Positions 1,537-31,964 of a stretch of 64,000 nt of DNA are shown piece after piece. The stretch's first letter is position 1. Each line of letters starts with the position of its first letter. The notes under the pieces were generated by a model. That model searched no databases and was not told where the DNA came from. It saw only the letters and a list, made by a program, of their open reading frames with translations. The position numbers and the translations under genes are program-made. Origin of the DNA: Escherichia coli (lineage in GTDB: Bacteria > Pseudomonadota > Gammaproteobacteria > Enterobacterales > Enterobacteriaceae); assembly GCF_013122565.1 (NCBI RefSeq), contig NZ_CP053258.1; one strand, written 5' to 3'.

Positions 1537-2016
1537 CTACAAATCCAACACCAGGCGTTTACCCTTCGCACGCGAACAACAGATCAACATACTTTGCTGG
1601 CTGGCACGCTCTTCATCGCTAAAATACTGATCCCGATGGTCAGCTTCACCTTCCAGTATTGCCGTTTCGCAGGTTCCGCATACCCCTTCACGACATAAAC
1701 ATTCCACTTTCGCGGCTTTATTATTTTCAATAACCTGCAAAATAGTCATCTCTTCCGGCACCACAAACTCTTTTCCGGAACGGGCAAGCACCAGGGTAAA
1801 TGCATCGCCGGTTTTGTCTTCGATAGCAAATTGCTCAAAGTGCAGCGTATCGGCGGCGATGTCCAGACGCGCAGCTTCACTTCTTACCGCTTCAATTAGC
1901 GCCTCGGGGCCACAGGTATAAACGTGTGTGCCAGGTTCGATATCCGCCATTGACATCCTCCACGTCCTGAAGGACGAGGAGGATGTCAATGGCAGGGTAT
2001 GAGTTGTATATTGCAT
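1537..2016 (-). pseudogene. yeaX: 3-prime remnant of yeaX-type oxidoreductase (end of NAD-binding domain plus 2Fe-2S ferredoxin domain); N-terminal two thirds missing
   Basis: 159-aa ORF with CGP motif and CxxGxCGTC...C ferredoxin motif; full-length class is about 320 aa; N-terminus of the ORF is translated palindrome (PLTSSSSFRTWRMSM). Confidence 0.6.
1947..1992. repeat. 46-bp near-perfect palindrome (22-bp arms, 1 mismatch, 2-nt centre)
   Basis: ccattgacatcctccacgtcct-ga-aggacgaggaggatgtcaatgg read directly and checked against its reverse complement. Confidence 0.85.
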
Positions 2017-2138
2017 TTAACGAATTAATTATTTTTGTGTTATATAAATTAAACAATTAAGAATTCGGAAAGCCATAAAACACGAAACGGAAACAATAAA
2101 AGGTGAAATGACGCAGGTTATTAACTGCAAAGAACGAA

Positions 2139-2163
2139 TAAAAAAACCGCGTCAGTGACGCGG
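2139..2163 (-). terminator. Intrinsic terminator downstream of dmlA
   Basis: On minus strand: stem ccgcgtc/gacgcgg followed by T7. Confidence 0.6.
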
Positions 2164-2184
2164 TTCAAATAAACTGGTTTGACC

Positions 2185-3270
2185 TTAACGCAAAATAATT
2201 TTGCAAATCGCGTCGGCAACCTGTGGCGTGGTGGCACTGCCTTTCATATCCGGTGTTTTCGGCCCGTGAGCAATCACTTCTTCAATCGCTGCCAGAATAC
2301 CGTTATGCGCTTGCTGGAAACGCTCATCGCCATTGCCGAGAAAATCGAGCATCATTGCACCGGCCCAAATTGTGGCGATAGGGTTAGCAATATTTTTCCC
2401 GTAGATATCCGGCGCGGAACCGTGGACAGGCTCGAAGAGCGACGGGAAAGTGCGTTCCGGATTCAGGTTGGCGGATGGGGCAATGCCAATGGTGCCGGTG
2501 CAGGCCGGGCCAAGATCGGAAAGGATATCGCCAAACAAATTGGACGCCACTACCACATCGAAGCGTTCCGGCTGCATCACAAAACGCGCGCAGAGAATAT
2601 CAATATGCTGCTTGTCCCACCGGATCTCCGGATAATTCTCGGCCATTGCTTCCACTCGCTCATCCCAGTACGGCATGCTGATGGCTAAACCGTTCGATTT
2701 AGTGGCAGAAGTTAGTGTCTTACGTGGGCGGCTTTGCGCAAGTTCGAAGGCATAACGCAAAATGCGATCGACACCACGACGCGTAAATACCGATTCCTGA
2801 ATGACGACTTCATGCTCTGTACCTTCATTCACTCTACCGCCGAGCGAGGAATATTCGCCTTCGGTGTTTTCCCTGACCACGTAAAAATCGATGTCGCCAG
2901 GCTGTTTTCCCGCCAGCGGGCAGGGAACGCCAGGAAAGAGACGAACCGGGCGCAGATTGACGTACTGGTCGAATTCACGACGAAATTTCAGCAGCGAACC
3001 CCACAACGAAATATGGTCCGGAACGGTATCCGGCCAGCCGACGGCACCAAAATAGATGGCGTCGAAACGGCTAAGTTGCTCATGCCAGTCGTCCGGCATC
3101 ATTTTACCGTGATGGCTGTAATACTCGCAGCTCGCCCACTCCATTTGCTCAAAACTCAAGGCGAAGCCCCAGCGCTCAGCGGCAGCCTGTAACACGCGAA
3201 TCCCTTCAGGAAGGACTTCTTTGCCAATCCCGTCTCCCGGGATCGCAGCAATACGCATCGTTTTCATCAT
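2185..3270 (-). CDS. dmlA: D-malate / tartrate dehydrogenase (decarboxylating), isocitrate-isopropylmalate DH family
   Basis: 361-aa ORF; divergent from LysR regulator as at K-12 yeaU-yeaT. Confidence 0.9.
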   Translation of the reverse strand: MMKTMRIAAIPGDGIGKEVLPEGIRVLQAAAERWGFALSFEQMEWASCEYYSHHGKMMPDDWHEQLSRFDAIYFGAVGWPDTVPDHISLWGSLLKFRREFDQYVNLRPVRLFPGVPCPLAGKQPGDIDFYVVRENTEGEYSSLGGRVNEGTEHEVVIQESVFTRRGVDRILRYAFELAQSRPRKTLTSATKSNGLAISMPYWDERVEAMAENYPEIRWDKQHIDILCARFVMQPERFDVVVASNLFGDILSDLGPACTGTIGIAPSANLNPERTFPSLFEPVHGSAPDIYGKNIANPIATIWAGAMMLDFLGNGDERFQQAHNGILAAIEEVIAHGPKTPDMKGSATTPQVADAICKIILR

Positions 3271-23210: not shown

Positions 23211-23483
23211 ATGAATCTTGATGACATTATCAACAGCATGACGCCTGAGGTATACCAGCGTTTGTCGACCGCCGTTGAACTGGGGAAATGGCCTGATGGC
23301 GTTGCGTTGACCGAGGAACAAAAAGAGAACTGCCTGCAACTGGTGATGCTGTGGCAAGCCCGCCATAATACCGAAGCACAGCATATGACAATTGACACAA
23401 ATGGTCAGATGGTCATGAAGAGCAAACAGCAGTTAAAAGAAGATTTTGGTATCTCAGCAAAGCCTATTGCCATGTTTAAGTGA
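23211..23483 (+). CDS. yeaC: DUF1315 protein
   Basis: 90 aa from MNLDDIINSM. Confidence 0.85.
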   Translation: MNLDDIINSMTPEVYQRLSTAVELGKWPDGVALTEEQKENCLQLVMLWQARHNTEAQHMTIDTNGQMVMKSKQQLKEDFGISAKPIAMFK

Positions 23484-23592
23484 ATGAGTTATCTAGTATT
23501 TAAGCCTGTTATTAAGGGAGGGCAAATATACTTGTTCGGACGTCGTGTTTTAGCTGCAAGTAGGTTAAATGCAACACTGACAAGTATTATCT

Positions 23593-23623
23593 GGCCTACA
23601 ATGTCATTGAGGAAATGTAGGCC
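23593..23623. repeat. Hairpin (REP-like fragment) in yeaC-pncA intergenic junction
   Basis: ggcctaca-N15-tgtaggcc. Confidence 0.4.
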
Positions 23624-23643
23624 AGAGATGAATTCAACTAAAA

Positions 23644-24285
23644 TTACCCCTGCGTCTCTTCCCAGTCTGCCAGCGTATATAGCGTTGCCCCAGCTGCTGA
23701 CATTTCCATAAACGCGTGCGCACTGTCCTGTGGCTGGATATTCACCCCACGACAGCCATCGATAATCACGTTTACCTTATAACCTAACTGTAACGCGTCC
23801 AGCACGGTAAACTTCACGCAATAGTCAGTCGCCAGGCCCATAACGATCAATTCATCGATTTCATGATCGCGTAACCAGTCATCAAGCGAGGTTTTCTGCC
23901 GACGGCCGTTATCAAAAAAGGCACTGTAACTGTCAACTAAAGGATTTTCGCCTTTATGGAACACCGCTGCGATCGCTTTTTGGTTCAGTAACGGATGTAA
24001 TTGTGCGCCTTCACTGTTCTGCACACAGTGATCTGGCCAGAAGGTTTGTGGCAAACCGTCGAGTTGGCCTGGCGTATAAGGCTCTACACCGTGCTGACTG
24101 GCAAAACTGCCGTGATTCGCCGGGTGCCAGTCCTGACTGGCGATAACCGCTTCACCGCGCGACTGGCACCAGTCAATCAGGCGGTTAGCGACATCCACCG
24201 TACTGTCACCTTCCGGCACGGCGAGCGCGCCACCAGCACAGAAATCATTTTGTAAATCGACCAGTAACAGGGCGCGAGGGGGCAT
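23644..24285 (-). CDS. pncA: Nicotinamidase / pyrazinamidase
   Basis: 213 aa from MPPRALLLVDLQNDF. Confidence 0.9.
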   Translation of the reverse strand: MPPRALLLVDLQNDFCAGGALAVPEGDSTVDVANRLIDWCQSRGEAVIASQDWHPANHGSFASQHGVEPYTPGQLDGLPQTFWPDHCVQNSEGAQLHPLLNQKAIAAVFHKGENPLVDSYSAFFDNGRRQKTSLDDWLRDHEIDELIVMGLATDYCVKFTVLDALQLGYKVNVIIDGCRGVNIQPQDSAHAFMEMSAAGATLYTLADWEETQG

Positions 24286-24295
24286 TGCAGTCTCC

Positions 24296-25312
24296 TTAAT
24301 CATCCGGCGTCAGTTCGCCGCGCAGGTTTTGGCTCATGGCCTTGCGAATGGTTTCAGTATCCAGTTCCTGGCTAAGCAGGTAATGCAGTTTGGTTAGCGT
24401 GGCTTCTACAGTCATATCTGCACCGCCAATTACGCCGGCATGGGCGAGGGCGTTACCGGTGGCATAACCACCCATGTTCACTTTACCGGACATACATTGT
24501 GTCAGGTTGACCACCACAATACCGCGATCGCTGGCTTCTTGTAATTCCTGCAGGAAGGCTTTGTTTTGTGGCGCATTACCCACGCCATAGGAGCGCAGAA
24601 TCAATGCTTTCACCGGTTGGCGCAGAAAATTGCGCACGACGTCAGCAGAAATCCCCGGATAAATCGTCACTACGCCAATTGGTTGCGGGGTGATTGGATG
24701 AACGATCAATTCCCCATCACCGTGCGGGGCGGGTGGCGTATTCAAACGACGAATATGGATACCTGCTTCCAGTAACGGAGGAAGGTTTGGAGAGGCAAAC
24801 GCATCAAAACCATCGGCATGGGCTTTGGTAGTGCGGTTGCCGCGATACAGTCGGTTATTAAAAAAGAGTGTTACTTCGTTGATCGGATAATTCGCCGCAA
24901 CGTACAACGCATTCAGCAGATTAATTTGTCCGTCAGAGCGTAGCTCAGCCAGCGGGATTTGTGACCCTGTCACAATGACCGGTTTACCGAGATTCTCGAG
25001 CATGAACGACAGCGCAGAGGCGGTATACGCCATCGTGTCGGTACCGTGTAGAATGACAAAACCATCATAGTCGTCATAGTGCGCTTTAATATCTTCAGCA
25101 ATATGCTGCCAGTCTTCCGGCGTCATATCTGAAGAATCCATCAGTGGCGTATATTCATGAATGGTGAAATCTGGCATCTCCGGGCGATGGAATTCCGGCA
25201 TCAGCGCCAGTTGGCGTTGTAGATGACCTGACACCGGTATATAACCCTGCTCGGAACGCTGCATCCCGATGGTCCCGCCCGTGTAGGCAACGTAAATTGA
25301 TTTCTTTTGCAT
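24296..25312 (-). CDS. ansA: Cytoplasmic L-asparaginase I
   Basis: 338 aa MQKKSIYVAYTGGTIGM... Confidence 0.92.
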   Translation of the reverse strand: MQKKSIYVAYTGGTIGMQRSEQGYIPVSGHLQRQLALMPEFHRPEMPDFTIHEYTPLMDSSDMTPEDWQHIAEDIKAHYDDYDGFVILHGTDTMAYTASALSFMLENLGKPVIVTGSQIPLAELRSDGQINLLNALYVAANYPINEVTLFFNNRLYRGNRTTKAHADGFDAFASPNLPPLLEAGIHIRRLNTPPAPHGDGELIVHPITPQPIGVVTIYPGISADVVRNFLRQPVKALILRSYGVGNAPQNKAFLQELQEASDRGIVVVNLTQCMSGKVNMGGYATGNALAHAGVIGGADMTVEATLTKLHYLLSQELDTETIRKAMSQNLRGELTPDD

Positions 25313-25390
25313 GATATTGATATGAATGATATCGAAAGAGCAAAAGTATATACGTGAGGGGCAGCGAGCGCACCTGGATACTCTGTGGAT

Positions 25391-25440
25391 ATGAGAAAAG
25401 TCCGGCAGGACGGAGGGATTAGTGTCCCGCCGGAGAAAAG
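25391..25440 (-). terminator. Stem-loop downstream of the extra lipoprotein gene
   Basis: Minus strand: tccggcgggac-12 nt loop-gtcctgccgga then cttttctc. Confidence 0.4.
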
Positions 25441-25443
25441 TGG

Positions 25444-26166
25444 TTAATCCTGCAACGCATAGGTTACGGTCGTGACTACGCGTACCGTTTTATTAATCGC
25501 CGTAGGATCATCTTCATCACTGCCACTGGCAAAGATCTGGAATACGCCTTGTGAGGCATCGCTAATTGACCCCACCTGGCTACCTGAGTCCGTTGCAAAT
25601 TGTAGTGCGGCGTTGCGTGCATCTTTGGTGGCGGCAGCAATCATCTCAGCGCGCAGTGCGCCAATACCATTAAAGCGATAGGCGACTTTGCTCTCAGCGA
25701 TAGCGCCATCTGTAGCGACTTGCAGTTCGTTTAATTTCGCGACGACTTTTTCGACAGCAGCAACATTATGGGTTTTTATCGTCACTGACCCGTCTGCGTT
25801 ATAGCGTGGCATTGTGGGATCATCTTTCAGATAGAAGGAATCTGTTCGCTTGCTTGTCCATTGGCCCAGGATTATCTCTTTCTCGTTAATCCCCTGAGCA
25901 TTGAGTTCGGCAACAATTTTTTTCTGCGCGTCTTCCAGTTTCGGGAACAGTTCGCCGGGAACATTACCTTTAAAGTTAAGCGCAATTATTAATTCTGCCG
26001 TATCTGCGCGAACTTCTTTTTCAGAAAGCCCGCGCACATTGACATAACGGTTGTTGGTTTTTAAATGTTTAACACCATCGCCAACAAAATAACCACAGGC
26101 GCTAATCCCCAGTCCGAGGACGATAGCGGCAATTAAAGAGGGGGCCTTGTTCACTGATGACTCCAT
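25444..26166 (-). CDS. Predicted lipoprotein, SIMPL/DUF541-like (BP26/YggE-type) domain; no K-12 counterpart at this position
   Basis: 240 aa from MESSVNKAPSLIAAIVLGLGISA|C (lipobox ISAC); SIMPL-like pattern VNVRG...ADTAEL..., C-terminal KTVRVVTTVTYAL; ORF stays open upstream to a GTG at 26256, so the start is uncertain. Confidence 0.7.
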   Translation of the reverse strand: MESSVNKAPSLIAAIVLGLGISACGYFVGDGVKHLKTNNRYVNVRGLSEKEVRADTAELIIALNFKGNVPGELFPKLEDAQKKIVAELNAQGINEKEIILGQWTSKRTDSFYLKDDPTMPRYNADGSVTIKTHNVAAVEKVVAKLNELQVATDGAIAESKVAYRFNGIGALRAEMIAAATKDARNAALQFATDSGSQVGSISDASQGVFQIFASGSDEDDPTAINKTVRVVTTVTYALQD

Positions 26167-26269
26167 ATCAGATGCTAAATGAGCAAGGGAATGTAGTGGA
26201 GAGAGGGAGTGAAAGACAGTCCGATTCAGGAGTGTGGCCGACAGCATATCGGCCACATTTTTGCAGGAT

Positions 26270-28126
26270 TTAACGCACGTTGGCGCAGGTCAGGCAAAAC
26301 GCATAACGGTTTTGTGGGTCGTTAAACGCCGCCAGCTTGTCGCTTTCACTTTTAACGGTAGAGGCTACCGAGGCCAGCGGTGCAGGTAACATGGCCTGGA
26401 ACGCATCTGGCAACATTGCCCGGACAGAACCAGACATGTTGTCCATCACTTTGTCGAAGAAGGTCGGTTCATCAACGTAGTATTCCAGATGCCACTGTTT
26501 CACTTTTGCCAGCTCTGCTGCTTTGGCGACCGCATCATCGAAATCCCCGAGACTATCGACCAGCCCGTTAGCTTTTGCGTCCTGACCGGTCCAGACGTGG
26601 CCCTGGGCGATTTTATCAATCTGCTCCGGCGTCGAATGACGCGCATCAGCAACCAGCGTGATAAAGCGTTTATAGCCATTCTCAATGCTTAACTGCATCA
26701 TCTGCTGCGCTTCCGGCGGCAGTGCCCTGGTGATAGAAACATCCGCCAGCGGTGAAGTTGAGACACCATCAGTATGAACACCAATCGAATCCAGACTATT
26801 TTCTACGGTGGTGATCACGCCGAAGATACCGATAGAACCGGTCAGGGTGCTGGGGTTAGCCACAATGTAATTAGCTGGCGTGGAAATCCAGTAACCACCA
26901 GATGCCGCCATGCCGCCCATCGATACAACCACAGGCTTACCCGCAGCCCGGGCTGCTGCCAGTTCAGCGCGAATCACTTCAGACGCGGTAACGCTGCCGC
27001 CTGGGCTATTAACACGCAGAACAATCGCTTTCACTTTCGGGTCAAGGCGAGCGTCGCGGATTTGTGCCGCAGTGGTATCACCGCCAACATTCCCCTGAGT
27101 TTCCTCGCCATCCATAATTGCGCCATTAGCGAAGACGACACCGATGCTGTCACCGGTATCTGCTGGCGTTTTCAATGCGTAATCGTAATAACTGATGGCG
27201 CGATAATTTTTATCAGTCTTACTCCAGCCGAACTCTTTGGTCAGAGCTTTTTCGATTTCGGCACTCGATGCCAGTGCATCGACCAGCTTGTTTTCCAGCG
27301 CATATTTCGCGGTATCGCCACCGGTTTTGGTTAAACCTTCAAGCAACCCTTGCGCGCCAGGAAATACCTGCTGAGCAGGGATCTGCCGGTTAGCGGCAAC
27401 AGTATTCAGATAGTTTTGCCACAGCTCACCAATCCAGCGGCTGTCAGCTTCGCGGGCTGCCGGTGACATATCATCACGAATAAACGGTTCAACGGCAGAT
27501 TTATACGTACCCACGCGGAACACATGGGTGGAAACTTTCAGCTTATCCAGCAACGATTTGTAGTACAGACCGTTGGTGGCAAAGCCGTGTAGATCAACCA
27601 CGCCTTGCGGAGACAGCCAAATTTTATTGGCGAAACTGGCGAGATAATATTGCCCCTGGCTGTAGTTCTCGCCAACGGCATAAACCGGTTTCCCGCTGTC
27701 ACGAAACTCTTTCAGGGCTTTGCCGATGTACTGCATAGACGGCTGGTCGCCGCCTGCGAAGTTTTTCAGATCCATCACGATACCGGTGATATTGCGGTCG
27801 TCCTTCGCCTGGCGAATGGTGTTGACGATATCAAACAGTGAGTTTTCCTGCAGACGATCGGAACTGGCACCAAGTAGTTGGCGGCTTAATTTACTAAACC
27901 GCTGAGAACTGTCGGGTTTATCGACGATTACACCAGAAATGTCCAGCAGCAGTGCACCACGACTGGCCGTTTCTTTCGAATCACCACCACTGACCTGCAT
28001 CCAGATCCCCACACCAACCAGCACGAGAAAAATAAAGAACAGGTTAAGTACCATTTCACGGACGAAATTCAGCAGACGCCACGTCCATTTAAAAAATCCG
28101 GCAATAAATCGCCAAAGGGTTCGCAT
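26270..28126 (-). CDS. sppA: Signal peptide peptidase A (protease IV)
   Basis: 618 aa from [12 protein letters not shown]. Confidence 0.9.
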
Positions 28127-28286
28127 GTATTCTCCCAACTTAAGGTCACACCTGTCACAGGCGCAATAGATGTGGTTATCGTAATGACCCAACCGACACT
28201 TGTCAGCAGGAATTGCGGACTGTGCTGTAACAAAATCCACTCTCGTGTTAATTTTGTGAATAAATATCATGACAGGAGTTAATCAA

Positions 28287-28838
28287 ATGGATGCACTCGA
28301 ACTATTGATCAATCGCCGTAGCGCCTCCCGCCTGGCTGAACCCGCGCCAACGGGTGAACAACTGCAAAACATCCTGCGTGCGGGTATGCGCGCGCCGGAC
28401 CATAAGTCCATGCAACCGTGGCATTTTTTTGTGATTGAAGGGGAAGGACGCGAGCGTTTCAGCGCCGCACTGGAACAGGGGGCGATTGCTGCCGGTAGTG
28501 ATGACAAAGCTATCGACAAAGCCCGTAATGCGCCGTTCCGCGCACCGCTCATCATCACGGTGGTGGCGAAATGCGAAGAAAATCATAAAGTCCCGCGATG
28601 GGAACAGGAAATGTCTGCCGGATGCGCGGTCATGGCGATGCAAATGGCAGCCGTTGCCCAGGGGTTTGGCGGCATCTGGCGCAGTGGCGCATTAACTGAA
28701 AGCCCGGTAGTGCGTGAAGCATTCGGTTGCCGTGAGCAGGATAAAATTGTCGGTTTTCTCTACCTCGGTACGCCGCAGTTGAAAGCATCTACGTCGATAA
28801 ACGTCCCGGACCCGACGCCGTTTGTGACTTATTTCTGA
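28287..28838 (+). CDS. ydjA: NAD(P)H nitroreductase
   Basis: 183 aa from [12 protein letters not shown]. Confidence 0.88.
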
Positions 28839-28954
28839 TAATTGTCGCGAAACTGTCTGGATTGTGAGCAAAGGCGCAGGAATTCAGACACTCTCACTTA
28901 TCACTTCACGGAATGAGGGTTACCATACCCGGATTGCATTGACAGGAGATGTCC

Positions 28955-29998
28955 ATGAGCGAGAACTCGATTCGTTTGACCCAATACAGCCACGGAGCTG
29001 GTTGCGGCTGTAAAATTTCCCCAAAAGTGTTGGAAACCATCCTGCACAGTGAGCAGGCGAAGTTTGTTGATCCGAATTTGCTTGTGGGTAATGAAACCCG
29101 CGACGATGCGGCGGTGTACGATCTGGGCAATGGCACCAGCGTTATCAGTACCACCGACTTCTTTATGCCGATCGTTGATAATCCTTTCGATTTTGGCCGC
29201 ATTGCGGCGACTAACGCCATCAGCGATATCTTCGCGATGGGGGGCAAACCGATTATGGCGATTGCGATCCTCGGCTGGCCGATTAACAAACTTTCCCCGG
29301 AAATTGCCCGCAAAGTAACCGAAGGTGGACGCTATGCATGCCGTCAGGCGGGTATTGCGCTGGCTGGCGGTCACTCCATCGATGCGCCGGAGCCGATTTT
29401 TGGTCTGGCGGTAACGGGGATCGTACCGACCGAGCGGGTGAAGAAAAACAGTACCGCACAAGCCGGATGCAAACTGTTCCTGACGAAACCGCTGGGGATC
29501 GGCGTTCTTACCACGGCTGAGAAAAAATCACTGTTGAAACCAGAACATCAGGGACTGGCGACGGAAGTGATGTGCCGGATGAACATCGCAGGCGCGTCCT
29601 TTGCCAACATTGAAGGCGTAAAAGCGATGACCGACGTAACGGGCTTTGGCCTGCTGGGCCATTTGAGCGAAATGTGTCAGGGCGCAGGTGTGCAGGCGCG
29701 CGTTGACTATGACGCGATCCCAAAATTGCCGGGGGTTGAAGAGTACATTAAGTTGGGCGCAGTGCCTGGCGGCACCGAACGTAACTTTGCCAGCTACGGT
29801 CATCTGATGGGTGAAATGCCGCGTGAAGTGCGCGATTTGCTGTGCGATCCGCAAACTTCTGGCGGTTTGCTGCTGGCGGTCATGCCGGAAGCAGAAAATG
29901 AGGTTAAAGCTACAGCCGCCGAGTTTGGCATTGAACTGACGGCGATTGGCGAACTGGTGCCAGCGCGCGGCGGTCGTGCCATGGTTGAGATCCGTTAA
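28955..29998 (+). CDS. selD: Selenide, water dikinase (selenophosphate synthetase)
   Basis: 347 aa [23 protein letters not shown]. Confidence 0.92.
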
Positions 29999-30002
29999 TT
30001 CA

Positions 30003-31964
30003 ATGCGGTTGTTTATTGCCGAAAAACCGAGTCTGGCGCGTGCCATTGCTGATGTCCTGCCCAAACCGCACCGGAAAGGCGATGGCTTTATTGAGTGCGG
30101 TAATGGTCAGGTGGTGACCTGGTGTATCGGTCACCTGCTTGAGCAGGCGCAGCCAGACGCCTACGACAGCCGCTATGCGCGCTGGAATCTTGCGGATTTG
30201 CCGATTGTCCCGGAAAAGTGGCAATTACAGCCCCGACCCTCCGTGACCAAACAACTTAATGTCATCAAACGCTTTTTGCATGAAGCCAGCGAAATCGTTC
30301 ATGCCGGGGACCCGGATCGTGAAGGGCAATTGCTGGTGGATGAAGTGCTGGACTATCTGCAACTGGCACCGGAAAAGCGCCAGCAGGTGCAGCGTTGCTT
30401 GATAAACGACCTGAACCCGCAGGCGGTTGAGCGGGCGATCGACCGTCTTCGTTCCAACAGTGAGTTTGTACCGCTGTGCGTTTCTGCGCTGGCGCGAGCG
30501 CGTGCCGACTGGCTGTACGGCATCAATATGACCCGTGCGTATACCATTCTCGGTCGCAATGCCGGTTATCAGGGCGTACTTTCCGTGGGACGCGTGCAGA
30601 CACCCGTGCTCGGGCTGGTGGTGCGCCGCGATGAAGAGATTGAAAACTTCGTGGCGAAAGACTTCTTTGAAGTCAAAGCACATATCGTGACACCTGCCGA
30701 TGAGCGGTTTACCGCTATCTGGCAACCGAGCGAAGCGTGTGAACCGTACCAGGATGAAGAAGGGCGCTTGTTACATCGTCCACTGGCGGAGCATGTGGTT
30801 AACCGCATTAGTGGTCAACCGGCTATTGTCACCAGCTATAACGATAAACGGGAATCAGAATCCGCGCCGCTGCCTTTTTCGCTTTCGGCGTTGCAGATTG
30901 AAGCGGCAAAACGCTTTGGTCTGAGCGCGCAGAACGTGCTTGATATCTGCCAGAAGCTGTACGAAACGCACAAGCTAATCACTTATCCGCGTTCCGATTG
31001 TCGCTATTTGCCAGAAGAACATTTTGCCGGACGCCACGCGGTGATGAATGCCATCAGCGTTCATGCACCGGGCTTGTTACCGCAGCCGGTGGTAGATCCG
31101 AATATGCGCAACCGCTGTTGGGATGACAAAAAGGTCGATGCGCACCACGCCATCATCCCGACCGCACGGAGTTCTGCGATCAACCTGACGGAGAACGAAG
31201 CGAAGGTCTATAACCTGATTGCCCGTCAGTACTTGATGCAGTTCTGCCCGGATGCGGTCTTCCGCAAGTGTGTTATCGAACTGGACATTGCCAAAGGCAA
31301 ATTTGTCGCTAAAGCCCGTTTTCTTGCTGAAGCAGGCTGGCGCACGCTGTTAGGCAGCAAAGAGCGCGATGAAGAAAACGACGGCACGCCATTGCCTGTG
31401 GTGGCGAAAGGCGATGAGTTGCTGTGTGAAAAAGGTGAAGTGGTAGAGCGGCAAACCCAGCCGCCGCGCCATTTTACCGATGCAACACTGCTTTCGGCGA
31501 TGACCGGGATCGCGCGCTTTGTACAGGACAAAGATCTGAAAAAGATCCTCCGTGCTACCGATGGTCTGGGGACAGAAGCAACGCGTGCCGGGATTATTGA
31601 ACTGCTGTTCAAGCGTGGCTTCCTGACCAAAAAAGGGCGCTATATCCACTCTACCGACGCCGGAAAAGCGTTATTCCATTCGCTGCCGGAGATGGCGACG
31701 CGACCGGACATGACCGCTCACTGGGAATCGGTGCTGACGCAAATCAGCGAAAAGCAGTGTCGCTACCAGGACTTTATGCAGCCGCTGGTGGGGACGCTAT
31801 ATCAGCTTATTGATCAAGCCAAACGTACTCCGGTGCGGCAGTTTCGCGGCATTGTGGCTCCGGGCAGTGGTGGCAGTGCTGATAAGAAAAAGGCTGCAAC
31901 GCGTAAACGTAGTGCGAAAAAAAGTCCGCCAGCAGATGAAGCCGGAAGCGGGGCGATAGCGTAA
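30003..31964 (+). CDS. topB: DNA topoisomerase III
   Basis: 653 aa [20 protein letters not shown], Toprim and topo IA domains. Confidence 0.92.

Follow-up and report, generated by a model that had tools for sequence, protein, structure and literature searches.

Introduction

IS200/IS605 elements insert with strand bias, and one member of the family, IS609, is already known together with its ends and its PATE-like derivatives. IS609 is cleaved at a left TTAT and a right TCAA (PMC6906374), and in the established model the element excises from, and inserts into, single strands 3' of a motif recognised by a guide in the left end (LE) (PMC10055086). The PATEs and single-hairpin mini elements of the family (e.g., 'L0135' of phage 933W) are gene-less and built from end hairpins, and they remain mobilisable by keeping both an LE with its TTAT and a right end (RE). 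A transposon of another family also leaves a palindromic remnant: after nearly precise excision of Tn10, ~50 bp derived from its two inverted IS10 outer ends stay behind.

Here we describe a palindromic insert at a deletion junction in Escherichia coli (contig NZ_CP053258.1, assembly GCF_013122565.1), where "the window" denotes the whole 64,000-nt stretch of DNA that was analysed. The 40-base insert consists of two mirrored REs of an IS609-type (IS200/IS605 family) insertion sequence. Like an IS609 RE, it has the terminal 31 nt (30 of 31 identical), a subterminal hairpin with a roughly 10-nt tail ending in TCAA, and a position 3' of TTAT with no target duplication; unlike an intact end, it keeps these last 31 nt only, and a mirrored tail replaces the guide-RNA scaffold inside the hairpin. 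It shares with PATEs and mini elements the absence of genes and the construction from end hairpins, but differs from them in having two REs and no LE, with neither TTAT kept; whereas PATE- or MITE-like elements combine LE and RE in multiple copies, we found one copy in the window and, for related 40-mers, one per genome in 18 species. The route proposed below would resemble Tn10 nearly precise excision in that an inverted repeat collapses by slippage at short repeats near the stem base and leaves a palindromic remnant, while differing from it in transposon family and chemistry, in using one self-complementary hairpin as the repeats, and in also losing the chromosomal DNA between the insertions. 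Finally, quasipalindrome and fold-back junctions would be comparable in the hairpin-guided strand switch and perhaps in the 2-4 flank bases that prolong the palindrome; in contrast to them, the scar does not consist of native locus sequence and its ends coincide with transposon cleavage motifs.

The deletion junction between yeaX and dmlA

Genes in this part of the window are ordered fadD, rnd, a 3' fragment of yeaX on the minus strand, the palindrome, dmlA (yeaU), dmlR, and leuE (Table 1). A first-pass annotation, made from the letters of the window, had noted a near-perfect palindrome (1947-1968/1971-1992) at the yeaX truncation boundary. Both observations were borne out: a repeat search recovered two 23-nt arms (1946-1968 and 1971-1993, one base longer per side) that are 96% complementary around a 2-nt centre, with A1962 versus A1977 as the sole mismatch, and among 5,426 complete E. 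coli genomes all left-side matches ended at 1949 and right-side matches started at 1992. The 48-mer occurs once in the 64-kb window and in none of 100 dinucleotide shuffles, with up to 3 mismatches allowed. It folds to -27 kcal/mol as single-stranded DNA (z = -8.2, 0 of 200 shuffles) and to -45 kcal/mol as minus-strand RNA (z = -9.7). Intact yeaX genes lack the palindrome, which is thus not a native internal part of the gene.

Table 1 Features at and around the deletion junction (window coordinates; L-numbers denote comparison records)
Feature	Position	Strand	Evidence or remarks
yeaX 3' remnant (C-terminal 2Fe-2S part, carnitine monooxygenase reductase)	1537..1949	-	up to 100% identity to E. 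coli yeaX; aligns with L002 1157-1569
Full palindrome, 23-nt arms, 2-nt centre, one mismatch	1946..1993		repeat search, shuffles, folding
"Double-RE" 40-mer: tail' TTGACATCCT, 20-nt hairpin, tail AGGATGTCAA	1950..1989		absent from intact loci; family of discrete 40-mers
Terminal 31 nt of IS609-type RE; terminus ...GTCAA abuts yeaX at 1950/1949	1950..1980	-	RE alignment
Subterminal hairpin CCACGTCCT-GA-AGGACGAGG, A/A mismatch 1962/1977	1960..1979		same hairpin and mismatch in IS609 of L007
Mirrored RE tail GGATGTCAA, second RE terminus, TCAA at 1986-1989	1981..1989	+	reverse complement of 1950-1958
yeaV-dmlA intergenic remnant, starting right after the native TTAT position	1990..2184	+	comparison with intact locus
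dmlA intrinsic terminator, context outside the scar	2144..2166	-	terminator scan
dmlA (yeaU), intact right neighbour	2185..3270	-	gene list and genome comparison

In the intact locus of E. coli LH50-c (L002), yeaX, yeaW, and yeaV lie between the two break points. Relative to this allele, the window has lost 3,429 nt of native DNA (L002 1570-4998), i.e., the 5' half of yeaX, yeaW, yeaV, and the yeaV promoter, and has gained about 40 nt instead. The intact left joint reads ...GATATCCGCCA/ATAATCGC (minus strand TTAT/TGGCGG; also written GATATCCGCCA/ATAATCGCGC). The intact right joint reads ...GTAATTAT/TTGCAGGGTAATG, where the window has TCAA/TGGCAGGGTATG. The flanks at the two joints are TGGCGGATATCG on the yeaX side and T(G/T)GCAGGGTA on the yeaV-upstream side. 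The lost DNA starts with ATAA, on the minus strand a TTAT that immediately precedes TGGCGG, and ends with a plus-strand TTAT that immediately precedes T(T/G)GCAGGG; both edges are therefore IS609 target motifs, on opposite strands. From local motif frequencies, the chance of finding TTAT motifs at both edges is 3e-5 to 7e-5. The yeaX joint is a canonical IS609 insertion joint, with the RE exactly 3' of the minus-strand TTAT, and the mirrored tail is joined to the yeaV upstream region exactly where the plus-strand TTAT ends.

A search of related genomes for the palindrome gave a divided answer: 40-mers of the same family occur elsewhere (see below), whereas none of the 5,426 complete E. coli genomes spans the junction, and neither the left junction nor the lineage-specific right flank had any match in metagenome scans (0 each). 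Such uniqueness would be expected of an assembly or sequencing artefact, for instance a chimeric fold-back read. This explanation is nonetheless highly improbable, since an artefact would give neither a 30/31 match to the IS609 RE, nor two breaks at TTAT, nor a family of 40-mers in independent assemblies.

The sequence to the right of the junction has diverged locally. Ten substitutions or indels relative to E. coli LH50-c crowd into 1992-2065 (74 nt beside the junction), whereas divergence outside this stretch is about 1%; transitions, running in both directions, make up most of the ten, and 8 of the 10 are absent from both intact alleles read (LH50-c, N96). No complete E. coli genome matches the first 90 nt of this flank at 90% identity or more. 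These changes could represent lineage polymorphism of the yeaV promoter or repair-associated mutation. In a K-12 MG1655 derivative (L032, L034), yeaV is annotated as a pseudogene without its N-terminus, and the K-12 sequence upstream of yeaV is wholly unlike that of other E. coli up to window position 2038. A putative 159-aa ORF (2016..1537, minus strand) starts in the former yeaV-dmlA spacer, crosses the palindrome, and continues in frame into the 2Fe-2S C-terminal domain of YeaX.

The insert and the right end of IS609

Two IS609 copies, at the ydcO and yedK sites, fix the ends of the element: the top strand of the RE ends ...hairpin-AGGATGTCAA, and TTAT precedes the LE. Window positions 1950-1980 are identical to the RE of the yedK copy (L007 3001-3031) at 30 of 31 positions, including the A that causes the stem mismatch, and to the RE of the K-12 ydcO copy at 29 of 31. 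Similarity to IS609 ceases at 1981, from where IS609 proper continues TCCCTGC and the window has the mirrored tail. Both strands of the 40-mer consequently read hairpin-AGGATGTCAA and end in TCAA; the top strand of the IS corresponds to the minus strand of the window, where its terminal TCAA adjoins TGGCGGATATC. By its likeness to the subterminal hairpin of the element, 1960-1979 is a putative TnpA binding site. As an aside, the ydcO and yedK coding sequences (L006, L007 3001-3004) are annotated with a stop codon, TGA, taken from the first IS609 RE bases.

These alignments change how the two arms should be read. The yeaX-proximal arm had been taken for continuous native coding sequence, yet only 4 nt of it (1946-1949, GCCA) are yeaX, 1950-1968 being the IS609-type terminus. 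The distal arm had been described as an inverted copy, which is correct for 1981-1989 and at most also for 1990-1993, whereas 1971-1980 is the native half of the IS609 hairpin. Nor does the single mismatch represent decay of a perfect copy, as it was inherited from an IS609 variant (the yedK copy).

The window otherwise holds nothing of the element. No tnpA or tnpB was detected in its 64 kb by tblastn with InsQ and TnpA, and pattern matching with up to 3 mismatches gave 0 matches to the LE in the same 64 kb, so that the constituents of an intact IS609-group element (tnpA and/or tnpB, and a left end with hairpin and DNA guide) are missing. What is present, namely a subterminal imperfect hairpin with a TCAA tail, joined 3' of TTAT without target duplication, is characteristic of an IS609-group RE remnant. 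We conclude that the palindrome is very probably the IS609-RE-derived scar of a TTAT-bounded deletion.

Several other sources were considered and rejected for sequence mismatch: engineering scars (FRT, loxP, I-SceI), the ends of IS1, IS2, IS3, IS5, IS10, and Tn3, and cix/hix invertase sites, dif, N15 telRL, integron attC, and REP. Full-text searches with 12-14-mers of the palindrome returned only primers and one Shigella indel table. This table lists a 62-mer insertion starting TTGACATCCTCCACGCCCTGAATGACGAGGACCCC... (PMC12671091), and the 62-mer corresponds to the 3' end of IS609 insQ/tnpB in most E. coli genomes.

Double-end palindromes in other genomes

We defined a family of double-RE 40-mers by the succession of TTGACATCCT, a 20-nt hairpin, and AGGATGTCAA, forming a discrete unit between unrelated flanks, a pattern that the window copy fits. 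A degenerate-pattern search identified exact TTGACA...TGTCAA 40-mers in 18 species, one per genome and with unrelated flanks, spanning Nitrosomonas, Comamonas, Legionella, Pseudomonas, Chlamydiales, Chlorobiaceae, and Acidimicrobiales; no IS609-like genes were found within the flanks examined. Sequences related to the 40-mer are held by 3,217 plasmid records, the largest group being Klebsiella IncF plasmids, and further hosts include P1-like phage-plasmids, the pPla plasmid, Yersinia pestis pPCP1, lambdoid prophages, and phage contigs. In all of these copies, palindromy stops exactly at both TCAA ends. Across 17 distinct variants, 94.4% of stem cells are paired, compensatory changes occur at 3 stem pairs (including 13:28 and 16:25; 2 of the 3 unconstrained by the search pattern), and the covariation score was reached by no shuffle. 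When RE termini alone were scanned for, most of the 141 termini recovered were ordinary REs (GGAAT-hairpin-AGGATGTCAA), about 15 were 46-nt single-hairpin mini elements preceded by TTAT, among them the one at 933W L0135, and 7 loci were double-REs.

The 40-mers mark joints between modules. That of pPCP1 stands at the exact point where homology with a RelE/HTH toxin-antitoxin module of other plasmids comes to an end (native ...tctaac/ATAA). Inverted TTATs bound the replaced DNA in the window (ATAA...TTAT, 3,429 nt), and the left joint in pPCP1 carries ATAA with 1 mismatch. The double-RE of the pPla plasmid (L005 1790-1829; same in Y. pestis pPCP1) marks the joint between the RelE/HTH module and pla, and another related hairpin, in shortened form, follows pla immediately on its 3' side (L005 1926-1950; also L031 1553-1577). 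Downstream of lambdoid cI, one left flank with its left-arm variant is joined to at least 3 different right arms or flanks, always exactly at TCAA/, such that the left-arm variant keeps its flank while right arm and right flank vary. One "empty-like" allele of this site has ATAA 4 nt from the break; had "type 2" of the lambdoid joints come from "type 1" through a simple deletion, a matching flank would be expected, and none was found. Viral scans for the P1-like left flank and the R-M right flank yielded no allele that was independent or empty. Upstream of fecI, the joint TCAA/TAATAGCAGACC is occupied in K-12 by an ordinary RE-type hairpin cut by IS1 and in Klebsiella-type DNA by a perfect double-RE (L028 and L004 at the right joint); in the K-12-type record (L063 2495-2530), the IS1-truncated hairpin ends AGGATGTCAA and adjoins the small gene ykiE.

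As the unit is discrete, ends exactly, carries TCAA 3'-terminally on either strand, and has unrelated flanks in different phyla, it could also be a minimal mobile hairpin element, moved by TnpA in trans and inserted here together with a deletion. We consider this improbable. The 40-mer has neither an LE nor the DNA guide that the established mechanism needs for recognition of TTAT (PMC10055086), genomes hold one copy rather than many, the arms change independently and travel with their flanks, and the variants at the E. coli sites compared all differ from each other.

Other structures in the collection suggest instead that two ends were combined. L066 holds a double-RE and, at a distance of 70 nt, a complete tnpA-tnpB element that carries the same hairpin. 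A phage contig (L141 1407-2104) contains two tnpB 3' fragments in inverted orientation, REs outward and centre deleted, which together form a quasi-palindrome of roughly 700 nt. Its arms match over 242 nt at 90% and 44 nt at 100%; at only 90% likeness they must stem from two copies rather than from a fold-back duplicate, and we read this contig as a long version of the double-RE structure, a precursor-like state derived from two diverged copies. The mirror-image product was also encountered: BLAST detected double-LE palindromes, TTAT/CCAGTGCGCCGTAAAA-hairpin-ATATAAGGCGCACTGG/ATAA, in E. coli chromosomes and plasmids, with palindromy stopping at the TTATs (e.g., L189 1501-1560 and L190 1501-1560, one E. 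coli plasmid and one E. coli chromosome). BLAST gave additional matches to the whole double-LE query in other E. coli genomes, but those covering at least 80% of it may mostly be ordinary extended IS609 LEs like that of IAI39, and a scan of viral contigs with the strict double-LE pattern gave 0 matches. A single-hairpin relative, the 50-nt mini IS609 (RE tail, hairpin, LE, and TTAT) of Stx phages, forms the 3' end of ORF L0135 in phage 933W (L003 2511-2560).

Possible routes to the scar

The best explanation of these data is probably a double right-end scar, formed when two inverted IS609-type ends collapsed at their shared hairpin and the intervening DNA was deleted; for the collapse of two ends as the specific route, we regard the case as evenly balanced. 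Two IS609-type ends would have stood at the two TTATs, inverted and with their REs outward, as the result of two insertions or of one element hopping locally onto a strand that still bore the complement of the first copy. The inverted pair would fold on itself as a long intrastrand stem, and replication or repair could then switch template at the near-palindromic TnpA-binding hairpin, removing both IS bodies and the DNA between them. The predicted product is tail'-hairpin-tail with both canonical outer joints kept. Collapse would lose both TTATs in the RE-outward case and keep both in the LE-outward case, which matches the family data for double-REs and double-LEs, respectively. A one-step strand exchange by TnpA alone was also worked through on paper and rejected, as it yields inversions or hairpin-capped arms and not the observed product.

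At the locus itself, the collapse of two ends is supported by the RE joined to yeaX at one TTAT and the mirrored tail at the second TTAT on the other strand, and beyond it by the inverted pair of the phage contig with its 90%-alike arms, the double-LE forms that stop at TTATs, and the L066 double-RE, whose hairpin is shared by a complete element nearby. Several observations weigh against it. The precursor is unobserved here, with a full IS609 at neither TTAT of the locus in the 5,426 complete E. coli genomes and metagenome contigs searched, and the window has no tnpA, tnpB, or LE. The 1960-1979 hairpin is wholly of the "bottom strand" type of a single IS609 copy, and a two-copy crossover would therefore sit at the very edge of the hairpin, at a GGA microhomology. 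Given the strand bias of the family, two opposite insertions 3.4 kb apart are unlikely a priori, and the ATAA of the one lambdoid "empty-like" allele lies 4 nt away from its break and not at it.

The main rival for this particular copy, which we judge unlikely though worth serious weight, starts from a single IS609 in yeaX. If the DNA broke, or a 3' end stalled, immediately inside the RE, that end would fold back on the subterminal hairpin and prime its own extension, copying the 9-nt tail and 2-4 nt of yeaX flank, before joining to the yeaV upstream region through GC microhomology. Positions 1990-1993 (TGGC) lengthen the palindrome by 4 nt (GCCA/TGGC), such that 1981-1993 could be fully templated by 1946-1958; in particular, TG (1990-1991) complements the CA of the yeaX flank, as folding back of a single IS would give. 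Three of these 4 nt are already complementary natively, and the fourth hangs on one T/G difference, the right flank reading TGGC in the window versus TTGC in the intact E. coli alleles read (LH50-c and N96). That TG is missing from these alleles, with no complete genome close to the flank, favours the fold-back and counts against two collapsed ends, although the T-to-G change at 1991 could equally be a lineage polymorphism or a quasipalindrome-templated correction. A single-copy origin would also account for the hairpin being entirely of one type, mismatch included, and for the canonical IS609 joint on the left.

Against the fold-back, the right break would have to fall 2 nt past a TTAT by coincidence (about 0.04 locally). 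All other members of the family end exactly at the IS terminus, with flanks devoid of palindromy, the double-LE forms end exactly at TTATs, and the arms of the phage contig are 90% alike rather than identical. The earlier suggestion of a hairpin or template-switch scar of the deletion survives in part: this is a junction scar, and both the collapse of two ends and the fold-back involve a strand switch, but the arms are not native locus sequence. The same annotation had found the persistence of so long a palindrome surprising. Instability through SbcCD concerns much longer palindromes, and the 19-23 bp stem here is like other IS and REP hairpins; with so short a stem, and the 40-mer stably inherited on many plasmids, persistence needs no special explanation.

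Present function and wider significance

The stability of the fold, the compensatory stem changes, and the frequent location of 40-mers directly after stop codons at module boundaries could together indicate a hairpin selected for function, whether in ending or stabilising transcripts, in binding a protein, or as the orphan end of a TnpB guide RNA. Like REP/BIME elements and intrinsic terminators, the scar is a short G+C-rich intergenic hairpin; unlike them, it is single-copy in 64 kb and has no REP consensus and no U-tract. Terminator and promoter scans returned nothing at the palindrome, where TTGACA is not followed by a -10 box, the only terminator being that of dmlA (2144-2166), and an Rfam scan of 1500-2300 in E-value mode gave only sub-threshold matches to generic hairpins (miRNA). 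Neither a promoter nor a terminator signature speaks for the 5' RNA hairpin of a remnant transcript that the first-pass annotation had raised as a possibility. The TnpA hairpin of the parent IS family suffices to explain the covariation, and the window copy has a dead gene fragment on one side and, on the other, a dmlA that already has its own terminator. Selection for function is thus very improbable, and the 40-mer, with no present function evident, looks like an inert scar.

In our literature search, which was incomplete in coverage, neither double-end palindromes nor TTAT-bounded deletions bearing such marks were found described. We tentatively propose that double-RE (40-mer) and double-LE (52-60-mer) palindromes may be a general, so far uncatalogued by-product of IS200/IS605 (TnpA/TnpB) elements, arising when an element lands inverted beside an existing copy of itself, with subsequent collapse of the pair at the TnpA hairpin. 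If so, these palindromes would be durable markers of TTAT-bounded deletions and module joints across phyla, phages, and plasmids, such as the joint beside pla in Y. pestis pPCP1 and the region upstream of fecI. Should the collapse of two ends prove correct, a transposon family that is described as scarless in other respects would have a side reaction that creates deletions. In the window, the loss of the carnitine-to-trimethylamine (TMA) genes yeaV, yeaW, and yeaX is very probably an IS609-associated deletion with target-motif edges and not a random one. The consequences are those of an ordinary IS scar, while its form is unusual, recurrent, and informative: past activity of IS200/IS605 (TnpA/TnpB) elements has left in the 40-base signature a fossil that is simple to search for and that, at module junctions in phages and plasmids of many phyla, could help to date and explain mosaic joints. 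It could also avert spurious gene calls for ORFs that overlap or end in IS609-derived hairpins or their stop codons, as in 933W L0135, the end of a DUF1353 gene, and the extended ydcO and yedK ends.

K-12 and the window (1-64000) share gene order throughout at 97-99% identity, being collinear, and no IS element is present in the window. An 8-kb segment (23300-31300) reaches a best identity of 98.2% among the 5,426 complete E. coli genomes, yet 1450-1949 is 100% identical to one strain, which points to a divergent or mosaic lineage outside this collection. Two further differences from K-12 were noted in the window. At 23481-23639, the K-12 ydjL-ydjE operon (about 9.2 kb) is absent and about 157 nt stand in its place, at a junction with neither palindrome nor IS end. 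At 25398-26233, the window has about 835 nt between ansA and sppA that are missing in K-12 and in which other E. coli annotate a SIMPL domain protein.
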